A stretch of 64,000 nucleotides of DNA. It comes from an uncultured Lentisphaerales bacterium (GTDB taxonomy: Bacteria > Verrucomicrobiota > Lentisphaeria > JABSQK01 > UBA12247). Shown here one piece after another: positions 33,923-55,911 of the stretch. Under the pieces are notes generated by a model. The model was not told the origin of the DNA, did not search any database, and saw only the letters and a list, made by a program, of their open reading frames with translations. The stretch's first letter is position 1, and each line of letters starts with the position of its first letter. The position numbers and the translations under genes were made by a program. The DNA is taken from positions 156,059 to 220,058 of the forward strand of contig CALSSJ010000022.1 in the NCBI GenBank assembly GCA_943788985.1, given 5' to 3'.

Positions 33923-36650
33923 TTACGCCTCGGGCCCGTGCCAGATGAGGCGGAGAGAATCGACGCGCAGGCGGGCCTGCGAAAGGCGCTCGGCGGTGGA
34001 CGCGAGATTCTGGCGAGCCAGTTCGATTTCGTCGCTGCGGACGCTGTCGTTCACTTTCCGCAAGGACAGCAGACGCTCAAGTTCGTGACCGAGCGTAGTG
34101 CCAGCGTCGCGGCTGGCCTCGTCGACAATCCGGGCCATTCTCGTCTCGGCTTCTTCTTCGGCGGTGGCAAGCATTTTGGGCGCGAGCGCCTGAAGGATGG
34201 CCTGATTCTGGAGCAGGGCACTCTCGGGCGAGACGGTGGCGAGCGCTGGCCACTCTCGGGGCTCTTGGACCGTCATCCGATTGTCCACGCTGATCGAGAT
34301 CGGCGTGGGCGGCAGGAAGCGGTCAACATGCAGGCGACGGCGGTGCGATGCATTCGACGACGAAGCGTACGTCCAAGACCAACTCACGGTGCTCGGTGCT
34401 TGCGGAGATCGCAAACACGACATTGCCGTGGTGGCCGCTGAGCATGGCATCGAGGAGGCCCAAGACCAGCGGATGGTCCCAGCTGAGGAAGGCTAGGTCT
34501 TCGCGGCTCAGCGCGCGGCGGCGTTCGAAGGTGCCAAGCAGGCCTTCTTCGGGGGACGCTGGGGAGGGAATCACTGAACAGCCGTTCGGCGCGAATCATG
34601 TAGGTGCGGTTTGCTCATGTCCTCGACAGGTGAACCTCCGAAGAAGTCGAGCAGGCGCAGGGTGAAGATATCAACCTCGGTGCTGAAGTCGCGGTCGGCG
34701 ATCTGCTCGGTGATCTCGTGGGCCACTTCGGGCCGATAGGAGTTCAGCTCGAGGAGCCGATCCCGGCCTTGTTCGAGACGCTTGATCAGGTTGCGGCGAT
34801 AGGCCGCAATCTCGCTCAGCAGCCCGGGACGAGCCTGGTCGGGGAGTCTGGCACCAGTCGTGGATCTGAGGCAGAAAGTGCTCGTGGGCTTCGTGGCTGC
34901 CGTGGAGATTGTGCTCGATGGCGTCGAGCCCCTCGTGGTAGTACTGACGGAGAATGTCCTCCGGAGTATGGGGAACGTAGGGCACGTGGATGGCGATCTC
35001 TTCGGTCTGGCCGATTCGATCCAGCCGACCAATGCGCTGCTCCAGTAGCTCCGGGTCATCAGGCAGGTCGAACAAGACGAGGTGGTGGGCAAACTGAAAG
35101 TTACGCCCCTCGCTGCCGATCTCGGAGCAAAGCAGCACGCTGGCGCCGTCTTGCTCGGAAAACCAAGCCGCGTTGCGGTCGCGGGTGATGAGGGTGAGCT
35201 CTTCATGGAAAATGGCGACTTTGGCGTTCAGGCGGGCGCGAAGCGCAGCCTCTAGAGCCAGGACCTTGCGGCGCGAGCGGCAGATCAGCAGCACTTTCTC
35301 GTCGCCGATTTCCCGCAGGAACTCTACCAGCCAGAGCGCACGGACGTCTGTGCCGAATTCGTAGTCGGGAGCTTGCTCCGAAGCTGCAGTCTCGAATGCG
35401 AACTCCGCACTGCAGGCCTGCGCCTGGGCTGGGGTTTTGGTTACGAGCGGATGCAGGTGCAGTTTTCGATCGGGGAAGCCTTTAATCGCGGCGCGGGTGT
35501 TGCGGTACATGACGCGGCCGGTGCCGTGTTGATCGATCAGCTCATCCAACGCCTGCTTGCGGTCGCTCTCCGGCACGGCGCTATCGGCCAGGAGCGCGGC
35601 TGCGGACTTCGCAACAGCTTCGTACTCTTGGGCTTCGCGGCGAAAGACGTCGAGGCTGTAGTAGCGGTTTGGATCGAGTAACCGCAGGCGGGCAAAGTGG
35701 CTTTCTTGCCCGAGTTGCTCGGGCGTGGCCGTAAGCAACAGCAGGCCGGGGCTGCTGCGGCCAATGGTCTCCACCGCCCGGTATTCAGGACTGATGAGGT
35801 CCTCGGACCAGCCTAGATGGTGGGCTTCGTCGACGACAACGAGGTCCCAGCCCGCCTCCGCGGCTTCTTCGATGCGCTTCGGGTGCTGAGTGAACAGGGA
35901 GAGCCCGGCCAGGACCAGCTGCTCATCCAAGAAGGGATTGACAGGCTCAGGTCCTGCTTCGATCGCGCCGCAACGTTCTTGGTCATAGATGCTGAACCAG
36001 AGATTGAAGCGCCGCATCATCTCGACGAACCATTGGTGCACGAGTGAGTCGGGGACGAGAATTAGAGCGCGTGCTGCACGTCCGCTCAACAGCAGGCGAT
36101 GGATGATCAGGCCAGCTTCGATGGTCTTGCCGAGGCCGACTTCGTCTGCCAGCAGCACGCGCGGCGCGTTACGTGAGGTGACCTCGCGGGCGATGTAGAA
36201 CTGGTGACCAATCAGGTCGATTCGGCCGCCGGTGAAGCCGCGCAACGGAGAGCTGCGGATTTCATGCCGCTTGGCCAGGGAGTCCTCGCGCAAGGCGAAG
36301 GCGTGGGGTGTCTCGAATTGCTGGTGTTGCAACCGTACCAGCGGTTCATCGAAGGTGAGATCGTGGGAAAGATCGGCTTCGGGGAGGCGTTGGTCGTTGC
36401 CGTGGTAGACGAGGCAGCCGTCCACGGTCTCGATATCCTCGACCACGATCTTGATCCCGTCCTCGGCTTCGATGGTATCACCGATTTGAAACAGCACGCG
36501 GCGCAGCGGGGCGCTGTCTTGGGCGTAGCGGCGGACGTCTTCGGAGCCGGGGAAGCGGATTTCGACATCGCGCTCCCCCAGGGCTGAGACGCTGCCAAGG
36601 CCCAGCTCAGGCTCGGTCTCGGAGATCCAGCGTTGGCCAATGGCAAACAT
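33923..36650 (-). CDS. rapA: RNA polymerase-associated SNF2-type ATPase RapA/HepA; several frameshifts in the 3' third
   Basis: GQRWISETEPELGLG, LLADEVGLGKT, DEAH, LLTATPEQLG, SEIGSEGRNFQFA, EQRIGRLDRIGQ, GRDRLLELNS, FLSWDHP, EL.RL..L..VN..VR.DE. Confidence 0.9.
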
Positions 36651-41028: not shown

Positions 41029-41264
41029 ATGGATAGCTTGATGATTTCGGAGTTCAAAACCCACTGCTAGGCGGTGATTGAAAAGATCCACGCGACCGGC
41101 GAGCCGGTGCTCGTGACGCGTCGGGGAAAGCGGCTGGCCAGAGTGCTTCCAGCGGAGGCAGTTGGCAGCAAATAGCGCTGCCTGGGAGAGCTGGCCGGTG
41201 AAGCCACTGTTCAAGAGACATCGTCCGCTTTAGCTCGAGCGATGACTGGGAAAGTCCGAAATGA
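41029..41264 (+). pseudogene. Phd/YefM-family antitoxin pseudogene
   Basis: MDSLMISEFKTHC*AVIEKIHATGEPVLVTRRGK.LA; TAG at 41068 and 41173, plus a late frameshift; TGA overlaps the toxin ATG. Confidence 0.8.
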
Positions 41265-41662
41265 CCCTGCTGCTGGACACGCATGTCTGGTTTTGGTCTC
41301 TTCAGTCGCCTGACGAGTTGGGCAAGCGTTGCCGCACAGCCGTGGAGTCGCCAGCAAACGAGTTGGCCGTGGCTACTATTTCGACACTGGAACAAGGCCA
41401 ATTGATTTCGGTGAACCGAATCGTCTTCAAGGGCACCCTTGAATCCTGGGTGCGCCGCGGCACGGCAGCATTGGGCTTAAAGTCGGTCGAACTCTCCCAT
41501 CCGCCAGCTATTCTTGCCTACGACTTGCCCGGCACCTTCCACAAAGATCCGGCAGACCGAATGTTGTTAGCCACTGCCATTCATTATGACGACCCCCTCG
41601 TGACCGCAGACGAACGCCTTATCGCCTAGCCTCACGTCCTGTCGCTGGATGCACGAAAATAG
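41261..41662 (+). pseudogene. vapC: VapC/PIN-domain toxin with premature TAG at 41627 (last 11 codons lost)
   Basis: LLLDTHVWFW, HKDPADRML.ATA, LVTADE; frame continues *PHVLSLDARK to TAG 41660. Confidence 0.8.
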
Positions 41663-42050
41663 GAGCGTCGGATGTCACCGGCGGCCTACCACTGTGGCGT
41701 AGGGCGAAACCCGAAAATCGAGAACGAGAACAAGTCTATTTCCAAGTGAACGGGAGCCCCGCGCGGTCCAGAAGCCGCAGCTTCAGATTCCGAGGGCCGT
41801 CCTCAGGCTGTCCATGATGCTTAGTTCTCGGGTTTTCTAGGACTACCCAGCCAGCGCTCATTTTGTCGTCGTTCTTCTCCCCATCCTGTGTAATACCCTC
41901 TTCGCCGCCTCGGGGCAAGCCCGGACGACGTGGCACGGCACGCCACGACTTACCGTTCTTTCCTACCCTAAAACTGGAAACCATCGCAATCAAATGCAAC
42001 ATGTTTTGTCGCGGCATCAGTAGTAAGAATTACGGCAGGCCGTTATTCCC

Positions 42051-42299
42051 GTTCACGGAGGGAACCAAGAACGTAGCCGGTGGTGAAGCCACCGGACTGG
42101 ATCGGCCTAACCATCCCGCCCTGAAGGGGCGACAGAACGAGGCGTGCAATGGCGGGATCGGGCGGAACGGGGACTGATTGCGTACCACCGCAAGATGTCT
42201 GCGCGCACGGTTTCTGGCAACCCTCCCGGGGCGCGAGGCAACGACGCCGGATACCGGTGGTTGCCACCACCGGCAACGTTCTTGTTTCCCGCCGGGAAA
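42051..42299. repeat. REPIN-like inverted pair of ~87-bp elements
   Basis: Forward copy 42051-42137 (caagaacgtagccggtggtgaagccaccgg...cgccctgaaggggcgacagaa) and inverted copy 42212-42299. Confidence 0.75.
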
Positions 42300-42622: not shown

Positions 42623-44062
42623 ATGCCTACATCTCCTTCAATTCCTGCTTTCCGTCTTGGTGTGCTGTATGACAGCTTGAACCAGGTTGCGATCGACGAC
42701 TGCCGCGGCGGCGAGCCGGTGGGCACCATGGGCCTGGTCAATGCCGGCGTGGTGCGCCGCGATCTGCGTAAAATTGAGGAATCGTTTGCTTGCCTCCAAG
42801 CGTTGTCGATTGAGGAGATGATCGCGATTTGCGGTCGTGCCGCCGAACTATTTATGGACGGAGACCTGTTCCTGACTGCGAGTCAGTCGCAGACGGCGGC
42901 CGATTACGTGCGCCAGCTTTCCGCCTCGAGCGGGCTGCCACATGCGCTCATTCGTAGCAACATGGAAAAGATTGCTTTTGTCCTGCGTGAAGTGCGGTCG
43001 GTGGTAAATGGGCTGACTCGCGGGTTGCCGTTCGAGGCGATCGAGCAGGGAATCCTGCAGACGGATGCCTCGTTGCTGAGCTTTTATCCGGCGACGACCT
43101 GCCTAGGAGCCGTGCTTCCGAGCAACTCTCCGGGCGTGAATTCGCTCTGGGTCCCGGCATTGGCACTGCGAATTCCGGTGATGCTCAAACCCGGCAAACA
43201 GGATCCGTGGACGCCGTGGCGCATGATTCAGGCGTTGATCGCAGGGGGCTGCCCAAGCGAGGCGTTCGGCTACTATCCGACCGATCACGAGGGTTCGAAT
43301 GTGCTGGCAGACAGCTGTGGCCGGGTGATTCTGTTTGGCGATGCCAAGACGGTCGCCCGGCACGCGGGGGATCCGCGCGTGAGTTGCCACGGGCCTGGCT
43401 ACAGCAAGATCGTGATGGGAGAGGACTGCGTCGACGAGTGGCCGCGCTACGTGAATGTGCTGGCGGATTCGATGCTGCGCAATAGTGGCCGCAGCTGTGT
43501 AAATGCTTCGACGATTGTGGTGCCGCGGCATGGTGCGGAGATCGCAAAGGCGATCGCCGAGCAGGCGATCAAGCTGGTCCCAAGACCGCTGGAGGCTGCG
43601 GATGCCGGACTGGCCGGGTTTACGAATGCGGCGTGGGCCGAGGCAATCGACGAGCTGATCGAGCAAGCGCTGGAGGAGCCAGGGGCCGTGGACGTGTCCG
43701 CTGCGCTTCGAGGCGGAAACCGGCTGGTCAGTTGCGATGGCATCAGCTACCTGCACCCCACGGTGGTGCATTGTGCGGACTCCGCACATTCACTGGCGAA
43801 GACGGAGTACATGTTCCCGTTTTGCTCGGTGGTGCAAATGCCACAGGCGGAGATGGCCGCATGGGTTGGGCCATCGCTGGTGGTTTCGGCGATCACCGAT
43901 GATGTGGGCTTTCGGGCGGAGTTGTTGCAGAGTGCGCACATTGACCGCCTGAACCTAGGGCCAATTCCCACGCCCAAGGTGGCGTGGGATCAGCCGCATG
44001 AGGGGAATTTGTTCGAGTTCTTGTACGCGCGGCGCGCGATTCAGGAGCAGCGCTGTGGCTGA
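42623..44062 (+). CDS. Aldehyde dehydrogenase-fold protein, acyl-CoA/acyl-AMP reductase-like
   Basis: LPSNSP, LKPG, NSGRSCVNAS (catalytic Cys), EYMFPF; HGPG where ELGG is normally found; C-terminal QPHEGNLFEFLY. Confidence 0.8.
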   Translation: MPTSPSIPAFRLGVLYDSLNQVAIDDCRGGEPVGTMGLVNAGVVRRDLRKIEESFACLQALSIEEMIAICGRAAELFMDGDLFLTASQSQTAADYVRQLSASSGLPHALIRSNMEKIAFVLREVRSVVNGLTRGLPFEAIEQGILQTDASLLSFYPATTCLGAVLPSNSPGVNSLWVPALALRIPVMLKPGKQDPWTPWRMIQALIAGGCPSEAFGYYPTDHEGSNVLADSCGRVILFGDAKTVARHAGDPRVSCHGPGYSKIVMGEDCVDEWPRYVNVLADSMLRNSGRSCVNASTIVVPRHGAEIAKAIAEQAIKLVPRPLEAADAGLAGFTNAAWAEAIDELIEQALEEPGAVDVSAALRGGNRLVSCDGISYLHPTVVHCADSAHSLAKTEYMFPFCSVVQMPQAEMAAWVGPSLVVSAITDDVGFRAELLQSAHIDRLNLGPIPTPKVAWDQPHEGNLFEFLYARRAIQEQRCG

Positions 44063-44618
44063 GGATTCTCCATCCTGGCCGATGGACTTGTTTATGAACG
44101 ACCGTGACCTCCCACTGCTGGAACTGCAGCAGGGCGCGGAGATTCCGCCGCCGTACCGAGACTTGCTGGTGCATATGAGGGAGATGACGCCGACGCTAGA
44201 GGCGTATTACGGCAGCTCGATTCATATCGAGCCTCTGCAGGTGCTGGATGGCCAGCTGACGTTTACCCGTGAGGCATTGCTGCGGCTGGATTCGTGCGAT
44301 AGAGTCGTGGAGTACGGGGTCTTGCGGGCGCACTTGGGCCTGCTGTCACCAGAAGCCGTGGAGTTGTTGCGAGCTCGGCGGGTGCCGATGGGGACTATTC
44401 TGGCGCGGTGCGGGGTGACGCACAGCTCGAGCCCAAGCGGCTTTTTCCGCTTCCGGAATCCGAAATTCGCGGCCGACAAGTTTTGTTTGGTATGGGACGG
44501 CTGGCTATACGGTCGGCGCAATACGCTGTTAAATGAGTCAGGTAGGCCGCTCGCCGAAGTGTGTGAGATCTTGCCGCCGGACGCACAGACTGGAGGTCGT
44601 GATGAGTCAGGAGTTTGA
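44055..44618 (+). CDS. Chorismate pyruvate-lyase-like protein (UbiC/Rv2949c fold)
   Basis: [37 protein letters not shown] pattern; about 187 aa. Confidence 0.62.
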
Positions 44619-45848
44619 TGTTCTTGTGGTGGGTGGTGGGCCGGGAGGGGCGACGGCCGCTGCAATTTTGGCCCAACGCGGGTATGCGGTGGCGCTGCTC
44701 GATCGGGCTACGTTTCCGCGCTATCGGGTCGGCGAGTCAATGATCCCGTACAACTACTTTCCGCTGGAAAAGGCGGGCATGATCCCCGCGTTGCGGAGTT
44801 CGCAATTCCCGCAAAAATATAGCGTGCAGTTCATCGGCCAAAGTGGTCGTCAGTCGCAAACCATTCTACTTTGATACACATATCGATCACGAGTGTGCCC
44901 AGACTTGGCAGGTGACGCGTGGGCTGTTCGACGCGATGCTGGTAGACCAGTGCCGCAAGGTGGGTGTAACGGTGGTAGAAGGCATGCAGGCGGTGGAGCT
45001 GATTGAGCAGAACGATGCGGTCGTAGGCGTCGTGGCTCGCGGGTTGGATCGGACGGAGCATCGGTATCGGGCGAAGATGACGATGGACGCGAGCGGCGGC
45101 CACGGCTTTGCCATGGGCCAACTAGGCTGGCGGATCTATGACCCAGGCCTGGAGAAGGTGGCAATCTGGGGCTATTTCAAGGGCGCCAAACGGGATGAGG
45201 GCAAGGACGAAGGCGCGACCACGATTACCTACCTGGAAGGAAAGAACTGGCTGTGGTACATCCCGCTGCAGGATGACATCGTCAGTGTCGGGGTGGTCGG
45301 TGATGACGACTACATCTACCGGGAAAGCCGGGATCTACAGACGATTTTTGAGACGGCTTGTGAGAAGAACACGTGGATCCGCGAGCACATGGCCGGCAGC
45401 CAGATCGCCGGGAAGTATCGCAGCTGCGTGCATCGCTCTTATCGCTCGCGGCATTGCGCCAAGAATGGCCTGGTGCTGCTCGGGCGATGCGTTTTCATTT
45501 TTGGATCCGGTCTTTTCGACCGGGATGTTTATTGCGCTGCGCACGGCGGATTTGGCGGCGGAGGCCGTGGACCTGGCGCTGAAGGCTGGGGATGTCTCGG
45601 GCAGCCAGTTTATCGAGTATGGCGAGAAGGCGTGCCGCGAGATCGAGATGCTGCGGAGACTGGTCTACGCCTTCTACGCGGATCGCTTCAGCTTTAAGCA
45701 GATTGTGGTGAAGTACCCGGAGCTGAAGGACGCGATCACGGATTGCCTCGTGGGGCATTTGGATCGAGATTTCAGCGAGCTGTGCAGCGCGCTGGCGGAA
45801 TTTTTGGAGTTGCCGCCGGTCGTGGAGCACGGCCGCGCAAAAGAATAA
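44602..45848 (+). CDS. Flavin-dependent halogenase-like protein; +1 frameshifts near 44859 and 45483
   Basis: [19 protein letters not shown] (catalytic Lys position), WLWYIP (WxWxIP), [14 protein letters not shown] across three consecutive frames. Confidence 0.78.
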
Positions 45849-45957
45849 ACAATGCCCAACAACCAACAGGGATTGTCCAATTTCCAATGAAGACCGCAGA
45901 TAGGGCTTGGATGTCGACTGGTCTGAGATAAAGAATTTTTCTAGGGATTGATAGACG

Positions 45958-46482
45958 ATGAAATGGCTATGGTTTGCACTGATGACGGTCTCGATGTGGG
46001 GACTGTATGGGATTTGCCTGCATGCGGGGCAGTTGGGCATGAACGATCCGGTCAATGGCCGCTACAAGGCGTTCTTCTGGGTGGGGATTGCGTATTTCCT
46101 GACTGCGGTCTTGGCACCGGCGGCGATTCTGACGATGCAGGGCGCGGACTGGTCGTTTCCGAAGGCCGGGCTGACCTGGTCGCTGATCGCCGGGCTGGTG
46201 GGAGCTGGTGGGGCGTTCTGCGTGCTGCTGGCGTTTGGCGCCAAGGGCACGCCTGCGACGGTGATGACCATTGTTTTTGCTGGCGCGCCGATCGTGAACG
46301 CTGTGGTGTTTATCTGTATGCACCCGCCGGAAGGGGGCTTTACCGCGCTGCCACTGCCGTTTATTCTGGGCATCGTGCTGGCCATTACCGGCGGCGGACT
46401 GGTGACCTACTACAAGCCGACTCCGGCCAAGGCACACAAACCGATGCCAGAGGCGGTCAGCCCCGCTGCCGATGCCAGGTAG
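45958..46482 (+). CDS. Small five-TM membrane protein, EamA/DMT-like
   Basis: WGLYG first helix, five hydrophobic segments, APIVN motif. Confidence 0.6.
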   Translation: MKWLWFALMTVSMWGLYGICLHAGQLGMNDPVNGRYKAFFWVGIAYFLTAVLAPAAILTMQGADWSFPKAGLTWSLIAGLVGAGGAFCVLLAFGAKGTPATVMTIVFAGAPIVNAVVFICMHPPEGGFTALPLPFILGIVLAITGGGLVTYYKPTPAKAHKPMPEAVSPAADAR

Positions 46483-47707
46483 CGCCGACTATCCGAGGCT
46501 GCGGAGTCAGCAACAGCAGGCACTCAGCGTGTTGCTGGGCAAGCTGACGGCGAGCAACGCCTTCTACGGACCGCGGATTCGCGCTGCTGGACTAGCGCGC
46601 GAAGATGTTACGCTGGATGATTTCTGCGCGGCGATGCCGGTCACGACCCGGGAGGACTGGGCTCAGGATCAGATCGATCATCCACCATTTGGCACGAATC
46701 TGACCTACCCGGAGTCCGCGTATATCCGATTCTGCAGGACGAGCGGCAGCACGGGGCGGCCAATGACCTGGCTGGATACGCGGGAGAGTTGGGCTGGGTT
46801 GCTAGATAGCTGGGGACGGGTGTTTGCGGCCGTCGGATTGGTGAAGCCGACGCGGATTTTTTTCGCCTTCTCGTTTGGGCCGTTCCTGGGCTTTTGGACG
46901 GCGTATGAGGCCGCGACGAAGTTTAACCACCTGTGCATTCCGGGCGGCGGCTTGCCGTCGGAGGCGCGGCTGCACTTGCTGATGGATACGCAGGCGGAGG
47001 TGCTGTGTTGTACACCTACGTACGCGATTCGGCTGGCGCACGTGGCGGCGGAGAAAGGGATAGACTTGGCCCAAAGCGGAGTGCGCAGTATCATCGTGGC
47101 TGGAGAGCCGGGCGGTAGCCTGCCGGCGGTGCGGGCGCAAATTTCAGAGGCCTGGCCCGGGGCGCAGGTGTACGACCACCATGGCATGACCGAGGTGGGG
47201 CCGGTGACGTATCAATGCCCGGCGGAGCCAGGCGTGCTGCATGTGATGGAGAATGCCTACCTGGCAGAGGTTGTGGACGACGAGCTACTTTTGACAACGC
47301 TGCTGCGTGATGGCTCGCCCTTGCTGCGCTACCGTACGGGAGATGTAGTGCAGGCCGAGCGCCACGAGCCATGTGCATGTGGAAGCCATGAGCTGCGGTT
47401 GGTCGGCGGGATTCGTGCCCGCAAGGATGACATGGTGGTGATACGCGGGGTGAATGTGTTTCCCGCCGCCGTCGACGAGATCGTCCGTTCGGTGCCGGGG
47501 ATTGTCGAGTATCAGGTGCGGATATCGCAACCTGAAGACCTGCCTGAGTTGACGGTGTTGATCGAAGCGCCGGATGGCGAGGCAACCGCGGAGAGGCTGC
47601 ACCGGAGCCTGCAGGGCGGGCTTTGTCTGCGCATTCCGGTGGAGCTGGCAGAGGCTGGGAGCCTGCCAAGATTTGAACTGAAAGCAAAGCGCTGGATTCG
47701 CTGCTGA
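46472..47707 (+). CDS. Phenylacetate-CoA ligase family (PaaK-like) adenylate-forming enzyme
   Basis: TSGSTGRP, CTPTYA, AGEPG, DHHGMTEVG, LLRYRTGD, RKDDMVVIRGVNVFP, LPRFELKAKR. Confidence 0.9.
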   Translation: MPGSADYPRLRSQQQQALSVLLGKLTASNAFYGPRIRAAGLAREDVTLDDFCAAMPVTTREDWAQDQIDHPPFGTNLTYPESAYIRFCRTSGSTGRPMTWLDTRESWAGLLDSWGRVFAAVGLVKPTRIFFAFSFGPFLGFWTAYEAATKFNHLCIPGGGLPSEARLHLLMDTQAEVLCCTPTYAIRLAHVAAEKGIDLAQSGVRSIIVAGEPGGSLPAVRAQISEAWPGAQVYDHHGMTEVGPVTYQCPAEPGVLHVMENAYLAEVVDDELLLTTLLRDGSPLLRYRTGDVVQAERHEPCACGSHELRLVGGIRARKDDMVVIRGVNVFPAAVDEIVRSVPGIVEYQVRISQPEDLPELTVLIEAPDGEATAERLHRSLQGGLCLRIPVELAEAGSLPRFELKAKRWIRC

Positions 47708-47721
47708 ACAAGGGATGAATC

Positions 47722-49590
47722 ATGACTGACTGCAACCATTTTGGGCTTGATGCCGGGCCAGAGGCCTTCGCGCGTTTGGCCCCGCATGTTCCGTCGATCT
47801 CGGGCAATTTTGAAATTCCAATGCATGTGGGCAAGCTGATCGCGGCGTGGGATCGGCCGAAGTTTGTGGCTGCGGAGTCCGCAATCCACATGCGCGATGA
47901 CGACTACGTAGTGGGGCTGGTGCACAACGGCGTGGCCCGTGCCTACCCGATGTGGGTGACCGATAACTACCACATGATCAACGACAAGATTGGCGGCGAC
48001 CCAGTGCTGTACGCGACCTGCGAGCGCTGTCAGTCTGGATCCGCCTTTCTGGCCGAAGTACAGGGCCAGCCCGCGAAGTTCAGCGCTTTGGGGATGCACA
48101 ATGCGTCGCTGACGATGATGAATCGCAAGCGCGGTCCGGTGACCAAGGGTAGCCTGTGGCTGCACTACGAGGGCGTCGCGATCACGGGCCCAGAACAAGG
48201 CAACTTTCTGCGCCAACTGGCCACCTATCACATGACCTGGGAGGAGTGGCGTACCGCGCATCCCGAGAGCGACGTGATGCTGGCGCCGGACGATGTGCAT
48301 CACCGCGACGCGCGGCATGGGCACGGACGCGAGGAGATTTTTGCCCGGCCTGGGATGGACCAGCCGCTGGCTTCGACCATCACCACTAGCTTCGACACGC
48401 GCTACCCCGAGAACGAGGTGGTGCTGGGCATCAATATTGACGCGGGCATCCGCGCCTATCCGCTGGTGGAAGTGAAACGTAGCGGCAGCGTGGTCAACGA
48501 TGTGCTCGGTGAATTGCCGATCGTCGTATTTGCCGGGCCACGGCCGGAGCAAGTGACGCTGGCCGCGTTCTGCCGGATCGTGAATGGCGAGGCGCTGAGC
48601 TTTGAACTCGCGGACGGGGCGTTTCGGGATCGTGAAACTGGGAGCACTTGGTCGGTCGAGGGGCAAGCATTGGCGGGGCCGCTGGCTGGCGAAAGTCTGA
48701 TCGCGTTGCGCGGCCAATACGTGCGCTGGCACGCCTGGGTATATCCGCATCCGGAGTCCGAACTGTATACAACGCCCCAGGCCATGCTGCGCTATGCGGA
48801 TCTGCCGGACGCAGCGAAGAGCAAGGCACTGGTGCCGGTGGTTGCCGGGATGGAGGCGCTCGGACTTACGGTCTACCTACACCACCAGATTGTGAATCTG
48901 AGCCTGCCGCATGAGGCAAAATCCGGGGTCTGTGTATTTGCCGGAAACGATCGTCTTAACCTCTACGAGTTTGAATCGGCTTCTGCTGCCGAGGATTACG
49001 TCGCATTTCAGGGGGCGTGGTTTTGCTGGCCCTTTGGGGTGAAGGTGGGGCGCAAGCGGGCGGCGCGTGCTGGCCGGCTTGTCGTGGAGTCAGATCCCAC
49101 GCGGACCTTTGCCGAGCCGACGCAGATTATCCGCTATCCGGACGAGCAGATCCCGTGGTCCTTTTTGGTGCAGGACGAGGCGGCAGTGGCGACTTGGTCT
49201 GTGGAGATCGCAGACGAGCCACTTACGGAGCCGTCCTACCGCGGCTTGATCGCCGGGTTGAAGGCGCGGCGGATCGATACGGTGGAAGCGGCCTATCTGC
49301 CGCACAGTCAACAGCGTCCCGGGACGCTGAGCTGCATTGCCGCGACGCTCGAGGCGGGGCGCTTCGCGATCTATCGCTGTGAATCCGAGGCCGCCGCGGA
49401 TGCGATCATCGCCGATGTCGGCCATGCGATTCGGGTGGGGACGTGGGTGTTTCGTTCGATTCCGGTGCTGATGTATGAGGAGCCGCATTACGAGATGGGC
49501 ATGTTGCCGGACGAGAAGATCGACTGGTCGCCTTTGCTGGGCGATGCCCAGTTTCGCAAGGCGCTCGAGGAGATTCTAGGCGGCGCGTGA
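47722..49590 (+). CDS. DUF3179-domain protein with duplicated C-terminal domain
   Basis: ARAYP..V...H.MIND..GG.PV..T.CERC.SG, G.AI.GP..G..L, TW.EWR..HP.S, DRETGSTW...G.A..GPL.G. Confidence 0.75.
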   Translation: MTDCNHFGLDAGPEAFARLAPHVPSISGNFEIPMHVGKLIAAWDRPKFVAAESAIHMRDDDYVVGLVHNGVARAYPMWVTDNYHMINDKIGGDPVLYATCERCQSGSAFLAEVQGQPAKFSALGMHNASLTMMNRKRGPVTKGSLWLHYEGVAITGPEQGNFLRQLATYHMTWEEWRTAHPESDVMLAPDDVHHRDARHGHGREEIFARPGMDQPLASTITTSFDTRYPENEVVLGINIDAGIRAYPLVEVKRSGSVVNDVLGELPIVVFAGPRPEQVTLAAFCRIVNGEALSFELADGAFRDRETGSTWSVEGQALAGPLAGESLIALRGQYVRWHAWVYPHPESELYTTPQAMLRYADLPDAAKSKALVPVVAGMEALGLTVYLHHQIVNLSLPHEAKSGVCVFAGNDRLNLYEFESASAAEDYVAFQGAWFCWPFGVKVGRKRAARAGRLVVESDPTRTFAEPTQIIRYPDEQIPWSFLVQDEAAVATWSVEIADEPLTEPSYRGLIAGLKARRIDTVEAAYLPHSQQRPGTLSCIAATLEAGRFAIYRCESEAAADAIIADVGHAIRVGTWVFRSIPVLMYEEPHYEMGMLPDEKIDWSPLLGDAQFRKALEEILGGA

Positions 49591-53975: not shown

Positions 53976-54197
53976 GCTGTCACACTACCACGATCCGAGT
54001 GCACCGGGATACGCCAGCGCCAAGTCCGTTGACTGGAGAAGCTGCGGAATGTATACGCATTATGGGCTTACCACCCGTGACAGCTCCAGCCATCAACTGT
54101 GAAAACGGGGGGCCCTGACCAGCTCGTCGACGGTCACGGGCGATGGTGTGAACGAATAGCCGCTGGACAACGGCCGGACCGCTGCTACCTGTCCGGC

Positions 54198-55911
54198 ATG
54201 ACTCTTCGCCTCTTTGCCCTTTTTTTCGTCGCCCTCGCGGCCTGCGCCGATAACCAGCTCCTACGGGAGTTTCATGCGGATCGGCAGCTGTTGCATCGCT
54301 TTTTCGATAGCGACCTGTCTGCGGACTCCGCAATGCGCATCGGCGACTTTTACCAAACGCAGCTATTGGCCTTGCAGAAGCAGCCGTTCGCGGATCTCGA
54401 CCGCAGCGGACAGGTCGACTTTTTGTTGCTGCAGAATCACCTCAGGCAGCGGCTGTTCTTTCTCCAGAAGGACGCAACATACCGCGACCTAGACGCTGAG
54501 TTTCTGCCGTTTGTTGCGCCCATTCTGGCGCTTGAGCTTGCTCGGCAGAAGATGGAGCCGCTGGTGGAAGCTGACGCCGCAGCCGCGCTCAGCGAGATCG
54601 CAACCGGCCTCGAGACGCTGCGCGAAACGGTGGACAAGCGCTTGGGCGAGCAGAAAGAGGACAGCGGCATCGAGCAGCTTCCGCCGGAGCAGGCCCAGCG
54701 CCTGGCCCAGCGAACGCAGCGCTGCAAGCAAAAGCTGGAGCATTGGTACAAGCAATACGCCGGGTATCGGCCTGGCTTCGCCTGGTGGATGAAGAAGCCG
54801 TACGAGGCCGCCAGCAAGGCCCTGGACGAGTATGCCAAGGTGTTGCGCGAGAAAGGAGCGGGGATCAAGGAAGACGCGGATGCGCCGTTGATCGGCCAGG
54901 CGGTCGGGGGCCGATACGCTCGCGGCCATGATTGGGTTTGAGATGCTGCCGTACAGCGCCGAAGAGCTGCTGGCGATCGGCGAGAAGGAGTTTGCTTGGT
55001 GCGAAGATCGCATGGAGGAGGCGGCCCAGACCATGGGGCTGACAGATCGCTTTGCTGCGCTGGAAGCGGTGAAGAAGAAGCACGTCGCGCCTGGCAAGCA
55101 GGATGAGCTGGTGGCGCAATACGCCCATGAGGCGGCTGCATTTGTCGAGGAGAATGATTTGGTCACGGTCCCACCGCTGTGCAAAGAACTCTGGGACGTG
55201 CGCATGATCGCGCCGGAAAACCTCGACCGTCTGCCCTACGCACTCTATCGCGGAAACAGCGTGGTGGTGGCCTTTGCTGCAGATGTGCTGGAACACGAAG
55301 AGAAGCTGATGAGCATGCGCGGCAACAACCTGCATGCGACCCGCATCGTCACGGCCCATGAAGTCATTCCTGGGCATCACCTGCAAATCTTCTACGGCAG
55401 CCGCTACCGGACCGATCGGCACATCTTTCGCACCCCGTTTTACGTGGAAGGCTGGTCGCTCTACTGGGAGATGTTGCTGTGGGACAAGGGCTTTGCGCGG
55501 GGACCCGAGGACGAGATCGGCATGCTGTTCTGGCGGATGCACCGCTGCGCGCGCATCATCGTCACGCTAAAGTTCCATCTCGGGCAGATGGCGCCGGAGG
55601 AAATGGTGACGTTTCTCATTGACCAGGTTGGCCATGAGGAAGAACCCGCAAAGTCCGAAGTGCGGCGCTTTATCGGCCCGGGCTGGGGCGTGCTCTATCA
55701 GGCTGGCTACATGCTGGGCGGACTCCAGATCCGCGCGCTTCAGCGCGAGCTGGTGCCGGAGACAATGAGCATGCGCGAGTTTCACGATGCGATTCTGCGG
55801 CAGGGCCCGATCCCGATCGAGATGTTGCGGGCGCAGCTGACGGATGGTCCGCTTTCTGCGGAGTTCGCACCGTCGTGGCCGTTTTACGAGGCTGCTGCCT
55901 CGGCGCCATAG
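54198..55911 (+). CDS. DUF885 family protein; +1 frameshift in a G-run near 54907
   Basis: Signal/lipobox; HEVIPGHHLQ, YVEGWSLYWE, R.ARIIV, YQAGYMLG, FHDAIL..G.IP. Confidence 0.82.

Follow-up and report, generated by a model that had tools for sequence, protein, structure and literature searches.

Six genes at positions 42623–49590 of a 64,000-nucleotide stretch of DNA (the window) from an uncultured Lentisphaerales bacterium make up the final part of a larger gene set that is common to many Planctomycetes and Verrucomicrobia. The set represents a real, apparently undescribed pathway assembled from known kinds of enzyme. On the sequence evidence we consider the chances even that the system makes a halogenated 4-hydroxybenzoate derivative without a carrier protein, through lyase, ligation, halogenation, hydrolysis and reduction steps. 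The window lies on contig CALSSJ010000022.1 (C22 below) of GenBank assembly GCA_943788985.1 (G000; 4.6 Mb, completeness 83.6%); G, C and L numbers are our handles for genomes, contigs and loci. All six co-oriented open reading frames (ORFs) were found in ORF and Pfam/NCBIfam scans:

42623–44062, + strand: EhpG-like acyl reductase with an aldehyde dehydrogenase (ALDH) fold (Pfam Aldedh, E 2e-15; KauB alignment; 35-row conservation)
44055–44618, + strand: chorismate-lyase-fold protein, DUF98/Rv2949c/UbiC-like (AlphaFold2 (AF2), Foldseek, VIA, 534 homologs)
44602–45848, + strand: flavin-dependent halogenase of the CndH/PltA/ChlB4 class, 414 aa (motifs in 53 rows; profile matches)
44858, no strand: extra base, assembly error (absent from 4/4 runs)
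45482, no strand: extra base, assembly error (absent from 3/3 DNA runs)
45958–46482, + strand: small hydrophobic membrane protein, EamA-like half (homolog EamA, E 6e-4; co-occurrence)
46472–47707, + strand: PaaK-like adenylating enzyme, acyl/aryl-CoA ligase family (NCBIfam PaaK, PDB relatives, ortholog spread)
47722–49590, + strand: long-form DUF3179 protein with two predicted Rieske-like repeats and a duplicated C-terminal half (E 8e-42; fold, invariant residues)

An earlier note on this DNA had described six co-oriented, mostly overlapping genes, and both the families and the overlaps are as it stated. The ALDH and lyase genes overlap by 8 bp and the lyase and flavoprotein genes by 17 bp; the flavoprotein and membrane genes are separated by a 109-bp gap, and a 14-bp gap precedes the DUF3179 gene. 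The lyase loci studied are the best 80 of 508 matches among genome contigs, and contig ends truncate many of them. Three of the 80 (L011–L013, Phycisphaerae records) have the identical six-gene order at 44–72% identity, and the arrangement is therefore not due to chance. Promoter and terminator scans gave results at chance level (3 versus 2.0 and 7 versus 6.5, respectively). In RNA run X17 genes and intergenic DNA are covered at similar depth; DNA carry-over is possible at such even depth and we thus make no claim of expression from it. At least half of the region's words are contained in 18 of 24 listed public sequencing runs (17 labelled marine or estuarine, one a coded organism), and the runs containing DNA of the region come from ten studies.

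In the window the flavoprotein ORF, which carries a WLWYIP motif, is spread over three frames. Base 44858 is missing from independent assemblies (four of four runs), as is base 45482 (three of three DNA runs; in the RNA run no contig covers it), and the gene is intact in L181, a short-read contig of the same organism (99.86% identical). The two frameshifts are therefore assembly errors, and the same evidence rules out a pseudogene. The full GxGxxG, catalytic Lys, WxWxIP and FxDPxxSxG set is present, with K72, WxWxIP and FxDPxFSxG conserved in the 53 rows of the halogenase alignment. All ten top rows of a profile search against the PDB belong to halogenases or to a related flavoprotein (E 5e-89 to 6e-56), the nearest solved relatives being 8ZOP, 3E1T, PltA, ChlB4 and CmlS; the best reductase is at E 2e-28. 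The proposal that the WxWxIP flavoprotein is a halogenase is thus borne out as class membership with intact motifs, and a grouping with reductases or hydroxylases, which would have spoken against it, is not what the profiles give. In a quick version of the halogenase tree the proteins of G000, G041–G043 and L184 form a separate clade (SH-aLRT 100) on a stem of 1.07 changes per site. This clade is sister to two same-order relatives, which suggests transfer between lineages. We consider it unlikely that the enzyme is instead a QhpG-like hydroxylase giving a catechol-type product with no halogen. The QhpG profile does match (E 1e-33), the clade of the window has the long stem just described, and the system is common in groundwater, lake and river records (by title), where bromide would be scarce. 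However, the CmlS profile scores better (E 3e-54), and the invariant catalytic Lys and WxWxIP are, in passages of PMC10696468, hallmarks of halogenases, required for halogenation and proposed to keep hydroxylation from occurring. We note that some loci carry titles such as Klebsiella, Akkermansia, Bifidobacterium and Chitinophaga (L015, L020, L021, L022, L047, L050, L071, L080, L087); those placed in the tree nest among Verrucomicrobiota. They are probably mislabelled deposits.

The 44055 protein, described in the earlier note as chorismate-lyase-like, has a confident AF2 fold (predicted local distance difference test score, pLDDT, 92.5), and this is the chorismate-lyase fold, here as a domain on its own. 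Foldseek matches it to 2NWI (E 1.6e-7) and 1FW9 (E 5e-5). The VIA structure comparison agrees, placing 2NWI (the DUF98 protein AF1396) first with Z 15.7 and giving 1FW9, the E. coli chorismate lyase, Z 11.4. We found 534 homologs, many with the source label chorismate-pyruvate lyase, in which M44-T45, R72, P111, R154 and E171 are invariant; these residues would correspond to the active-site pattern of UbiC. At about ten verrucomicrobial loci a type VII-like block of WXG100 and FtsK/SpoIIIE genes is inserted directly after the lyase gene (L014, L023, L033, L039, L053, L054, L056, L059, L084, L087). A right-handed beta-helix protein of 710–800 aa also recurs beside the lyase gene or that of a family 4 glycosyltransferase (GT4) (L016, L042, L059, L079, L081, L082, L085, L088, L118).

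The ligase is PaaK-like only: it matches NCBIfam PaaK at E 1e-46 and falls below the curated cut-offs (159 versus 700 and 128 versus 646 bits). Its PDB matches are 6HDW (E 7.5e-41), PaaK (E 8.5e-37) and AjiA1 (E 4e-20). Orthologs at 44–45% occur in three single-contig carriers of the system, and the non-carrier G229 has only paralogs at 30–31%. The membrane protein itself has no Pfam match and its homolog matches EamA below the cut-off (E 6e-4); it may have a role in transport. A thioesterase of the 4HBT (hotdog) family, encoded on contig C14 in the window genome, lies beside the membrane protein and ligase genes in relatives, which fits a coenzyme A (CoA) intermediate. It is rather improbable that the PaaK-like enzyme instead couples two aryl units, an acid with a phenol or benzyl alcohol, to give an ester or amide while the halogenase uses another tether such as the acyl-Cys of the ALDH. 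Such coupling would draw on an activated acid and a reduced aryl partner, both of which the pathway would provide, and the ligase does match AjiA1, PaaK-like ligases and BagE/FevW, with their ester-forming role. Its best matches are nevertheless CoA ligases, 6HDW and PaaK being well ahead of AjiA1, and the position of the thioesterase also speaks for CoA.

In the ALDH-fold protein Cys292 and PSNSPG are kept and the general-base Glu is replaced by His256 (HGPG), as judged from an alignment to KauB and from conservation over 35 rows. An ALDH fold with the catalytic Cys and without the general-base Glu marks acylating enzymes and fits reduction of a thioester. The alignment and residue conservation thus support the EhpG-like reading of this protein; EhpF and EhpG are proposed to convert an acid to its aldehyde. 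The earlier note had cast the PaaK-like ligase as the EhpF-type partner, an assignment we reject. A true EhpF homolog (E 2.5e-46 against EhpF in the PDB) lies directly 5′ of the ALDH gene in most relatives examined, including L012 and L013, and in the window genome it is on C14, with the ALDH on C22. The C14 homolog is likely the partner of the ALDH-fold protein.

The six genes had also been taken for a self-contained pathway, which the larger blocks in relatives rule out; they belong to a system of about 15 genes. Around the best 80 lyase genes there are a HemN-like radical S-adenosylmethionine (SAM) gene in 68, a halogenase in 54, a beta-propeller in 52, a GT4 in 25, a thioesterase in 16 and a ligase nearby in 10. 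The operons of L012 and L013 extend upstream into TAXI-TRAP transporter genes, the 4HBT-family thioesterase, three propellers and the EhpF gene directly before that of the ALDH. Almost the entire set is contiguous in G353, G398 and G046, and G230 also has a near-complete block. The block of the first three begins with two propellers, an SSS importer, EhpF, ALDH, an iron-dependent alcohol dehydrogenase (Fe-ADH), a further propeller and HemN; it continues with the lyase, halogenase, GT4, thioesterase, membrane protein, ligase and an ATP-binding cassette (ABC) transporter. In the window genome the partner genes are at five other loci: the thioesterase, propellers and EhpF on C14, a GT4 between propellers on C43, an FtsX-type permease on C21, and TRAP parts on C8 and C33.

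For co-occurrence we counted 81 genomes from the order to which G045, a Limisphaerales record, belongs, and 151 Planctomycetota; the genomes are related and mostly incomplete, so that the counts describe a pattern, overstate independence and are no test. Among the 81, 57 have the lyase, 58 have EhpF and 53 the membrane protein. Lyase and EhpF occur together in 55 and one of the two alone in five; 21 have none of the three, so that the membrane protein is in 0/21 of the genomes that have neither lyase nor EhpF. Lyase and EhpF are usually at different loci, yet co-occur almost all-or-none. For Planctomycetota, eight of 36 EhpF-matching genomes were set aside as distant (31–34% identity); the 28 kept include every one of the 17 lyase carriers. 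In the sample of the window genome's own phylum the lyase is in 3/151. Together with the gene order of L011–L013 and the metagenome copies described below, these results bear out the expectation that the families co-occur in other genomes. The system is thus widespread, being present in 60 of those 81 verrucomicrobial genomes and in 28 of the 151 Planctomycetota.

Importers flank the cluster in relatives, either SSS with DUF3311 or TAXI-TRAP. In the G045 order an importer is found only in carriers (19/60 versus 0/21 non-carriers), which fits uptake of a precursor. The system might accordingly act on an aromatic acid taken up from outside, such as a phenazine or an algal phenolic, modifying or detoxifying it, in place of one made from chorismate. 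The lyase was not found in 11 of the 28 EhpF-positive Planctomycetota, and EhpF belongs to phenazine tailoring in passages of PMC3175449. We nevertheless judge such an imported substrate very unlikely; the lyase accompanies the halogenase in 54 of the 80 loci and is in 57 of the 60 carriers of one order, only 19 of which have the importer.

Genes, folds, motifs and co-occurrence are as observed above; from them we infer the substrates, the order of steps and the product, the most economical scheme being as follows. The lyase would convert chorismate to 4-hydroxybenzoate, and the PaaK-like ligase would form an aryl-CoA thioester that substitutes for a carrier protein. The flavoenzyme would then halogenate ortho to the phenol, with bromine the likely halogen in seawater, and the hotdog thioesterase (C14) would release the acid. 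The EhpF homolog (C14) may adenylate this acid for transfer to Cys292 of the ALDH-fold protein, which would reduce it to the aldehyde. Where the cluster has its common form, the Fe-ADH could continue to the benzyl alcohol, a HemN-like radical SAM enzyme could add a C1 unit, and glycosylation might follow; the subtype of the window would have lost HemN and Fe-ADH and gained DUF3179 as a redox partner. Handling of the product would fall to the GT4, the membrane protein, the FtsX-type ABC transporter and the secreted beta-propellers. CndH/PltA-class halogenases are known for acting on tethered substrates, and no carrier protein and no nonribosomal peptide synthetase (NRPS) or polyketide synthase (PKS) was recognised in any cluster copy seen; the order ligase, halogenase, thioesterase is proposed on the basis of this halogenase class and the lack of a recognised carrier gene.

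Several observations weigh against this scheme. UTRA ligand-binding domains match the lyase fold at Z up to 12.2 in VIA. The lyase missing from 11 of the 28 Planctomycetota implies either that 4-hydroxybenzoate synthesis is not obligatory or that the gene is too divergent there. The PaaK family includes AjiA1 and BagE, which form esters without CoA. The structural matches of EhpF come from a phenazine pathway and thus the substrate could exceed the size of a benzoate. A PF01613 flavin reductase was found in two of five genomes and not in G000 (83.6% complete), G043 or G270, and no flavin reductase was recognised in the cluster copies. G041 has no heme-copper oxidase and does have cytochrome bd, and G042 has neither clearly; the absence of a clear terminal oxidase from G042 is a poor fit with an O2-dependent enzyme.

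The long DUF3179 protein distinguishes the subtype to which the window belongs. Its fold is predicted with pLDDT 94.8, and the N-terminal half is an internal duplication (E 4e-11). No sequence relative was found in the PDB. By structure this half matches mostly Rieske proteins at middling scores; they make up most of 50 VIA rows (top Z 8.1, root-mean-square deviation 3.5, 98 aligned), with Foldseek E values no better than 8e-3. No fold is assigned to the C-terminal half. In the first repeat H84, C100, C103 and H148 are invariant in 111 rows; this Cys/His set is in a different order from the CxH and CxxH ligand boxes of Rieske proteins. Passages of PMC9312934 describe selenocysteine members of the DUF3179 family with a UxxC/T motif, which together with the invariant Cys/His set indicates a redox site. 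We predict that DUF3179 acts as a redox partner based on a metal or on thiols. A complex prediction of the halogenase with DUF3179 residues 8–352 scored 0.02 against a mark of 0.32, which is evidence neither way.

The subtype comprises G000 and G041–G043, of which G041 is a single contig. It has no ortholog of HemN (best 26–30%) or of Fe-ADH (at most 32%) and adds the long DUF3179, a fourth propeller and TAXI-TRAP. It is rare: the long DUF3179 is in one of 301 Planctomycetota, although the protein database holds about 80 homologs above 44%. Among twelve metagenome loci with a long DUF3179, four have the cluster or part of it (L181, L184, L192 and L182, the last of which begins at the DUF3179 gene). 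Five of the six genes were recognised in L184, with no gene given to the lyase position. Another three (L183, L185, L191) have an unrelated halogenase-like gene nearby, L190 has a flavin-containing monooxygenase-like gene, L188 an AMP-binding gene, and three others have nothing assigned. It is possible that the long DUF3179 marks overlooked small-molecule clusters. By eye, L185 also has an ORF resembling an acyl carrier protein near its long DUF3179.

The cluster itself includes three to four propeller genes, and carriers are rich in PQQ-like secreted beta-propellers. The product might thus be the propellers' cofactor or prosthetic group and not a released metabolite, with the same chemistry throughout; we regard this as unlikely. 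The match counts are lower bounds that include the cluster's own propellers, with no phylogenetic correction. At least nine PQQ_2 matches were found in 60/60 carriers versus 7/21 non-carriers of the G045 order, and at least ten in 26/28 carriers versus 16/123 others among Planctomycetota; for genomes of at least 5 Mb, 23/24 carriers and 7/35 others are propeller-rich. EhpF homologs are 66–95% identical across one order, and the cluster propellers conserve His/Asp/Asn motifs. However, propeller-rich non-carriers exist, including the single-contig G229. A salvage version of the idea predicts that such genomes keep the cluster importer, and it failed (0/21). They keep instead a separate propeller–GT4 module (GT4 in G229, G211 and four of five further genomes), and the window genome has only seven propeller matches, five of them cluster-linked. 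The most elaborate version, a new halogenated hydroxybenzoate-derived propeller cofactor with DUF3179 as a Rieske-like halogenase partner characteristic of a subtype that does without radical SAM chemistry, is likewise improbable. A GT4 with an N-terminal CxxC adjoins PQQ-like propeller genes at L108, L110, L194–L197 and G000:C43:58304–61630. This pair is often accompanied by an FtsX/LolD ABC pair and is present also in genomes without the biosynthetic genes, as a second, wider module.

The analogy to the bmp pathway proposed in the earlier note is a loose one. As in bmp5/bmp6 of Pseudoalteromonas and in the baa locus, a chorismate-lyase-like gene stands beside a flavin halogenase gene with no PKS/NRPS. 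The halogenase, however, is of the CndH/PltA/ChlB4 class and not Bmp5-type, BaaB and Bmp5 being set apart here by description and not by sequence; we take these two to belong to a different halogenase family. PltA, CndH, ChlB4 and CmlS, the best relatives with the full motif set, depend on a carrier, in place of which a CoA thioester would serve here. Passages of a preprint (bioRxiv 10.1101/723874) link 3,5-dibromo-p-anisic acid to the baa locus of Planctomycetales strain 10988, a planctomycete host that recalls the carriers here from the Planctomycetes–Verrucomicrobia–Chlamydiae group, and give BaaB as about 44% similar to Bmp5; they report no CoA ligase, thioesterase, EhpF/EhpG pair, radical SAM enzyme or propellers. 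The EhpF homolog directly before an ALDH-family gene in relatives resembles the ehpF-ehpG order in ehpA-O, the cluster for D-alanyl-griseoluteic acid biosynthesis (passages of PMC3175449 and PMC11278526), a likeness to EhpG of gene order and not of sequence. Unlike ehp, no phenazine core genes were recognised in the cluster loci examined; PhzA/B was found in none of five genomes, where the control was likewise detected nowhere. Compared with the common form of the cluster in these phyla, the lyase and halogenase of the window are orthologous, whereas HemN and Fe-ADH are absent and the halogenase has its own clade.

We found no published description of the lyase–halogenase pair combined with EhpF/EhpG in a literature search with subscription journals and preprint supplements outside its scope, in agreement with the earlier view that this is not a characterised pathway. 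The lyase and halogenase pair (baa, bmp) and the EhpF/EhpG pair (phenazine clusters) are known already; new here are the EhpF/EhpG/Fe-ADH half, the all-or-none profile over scattered loci, the link to propellers and the DUF3179 subtype. A carrier-free organohalogen pathway of this kind would probably escape rule-based cluster finders. If our scheme is correct, halophenols would gain a further natural source, and there would be a halogenase that may act on CoA thioesters; a product used by the propellers would account for a large protein expansion in these phyla that so far lacks an explanation.

Other features of the window were also seen. Upstream of the operon, positions 42047–42290 hold a structured-looking element with complementary ends and no Rfam match; matching contigs from other organisms have both ends and leave out 131 bases between the two. 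Positions 41030–41629 encode a PIN-domain (VapC-like) protein with a short antitoxin-like frame upstream, and L181 differs from the window there by one indel near 41212. Further apparently frameshifted genes lie at 34671–36650 and 54099–55911 and on C14 and C43 of G000 (a RapA-like helicase, a DUF885-like protein by eye, and cluster propellers), consistent with indel errors in this assembly.

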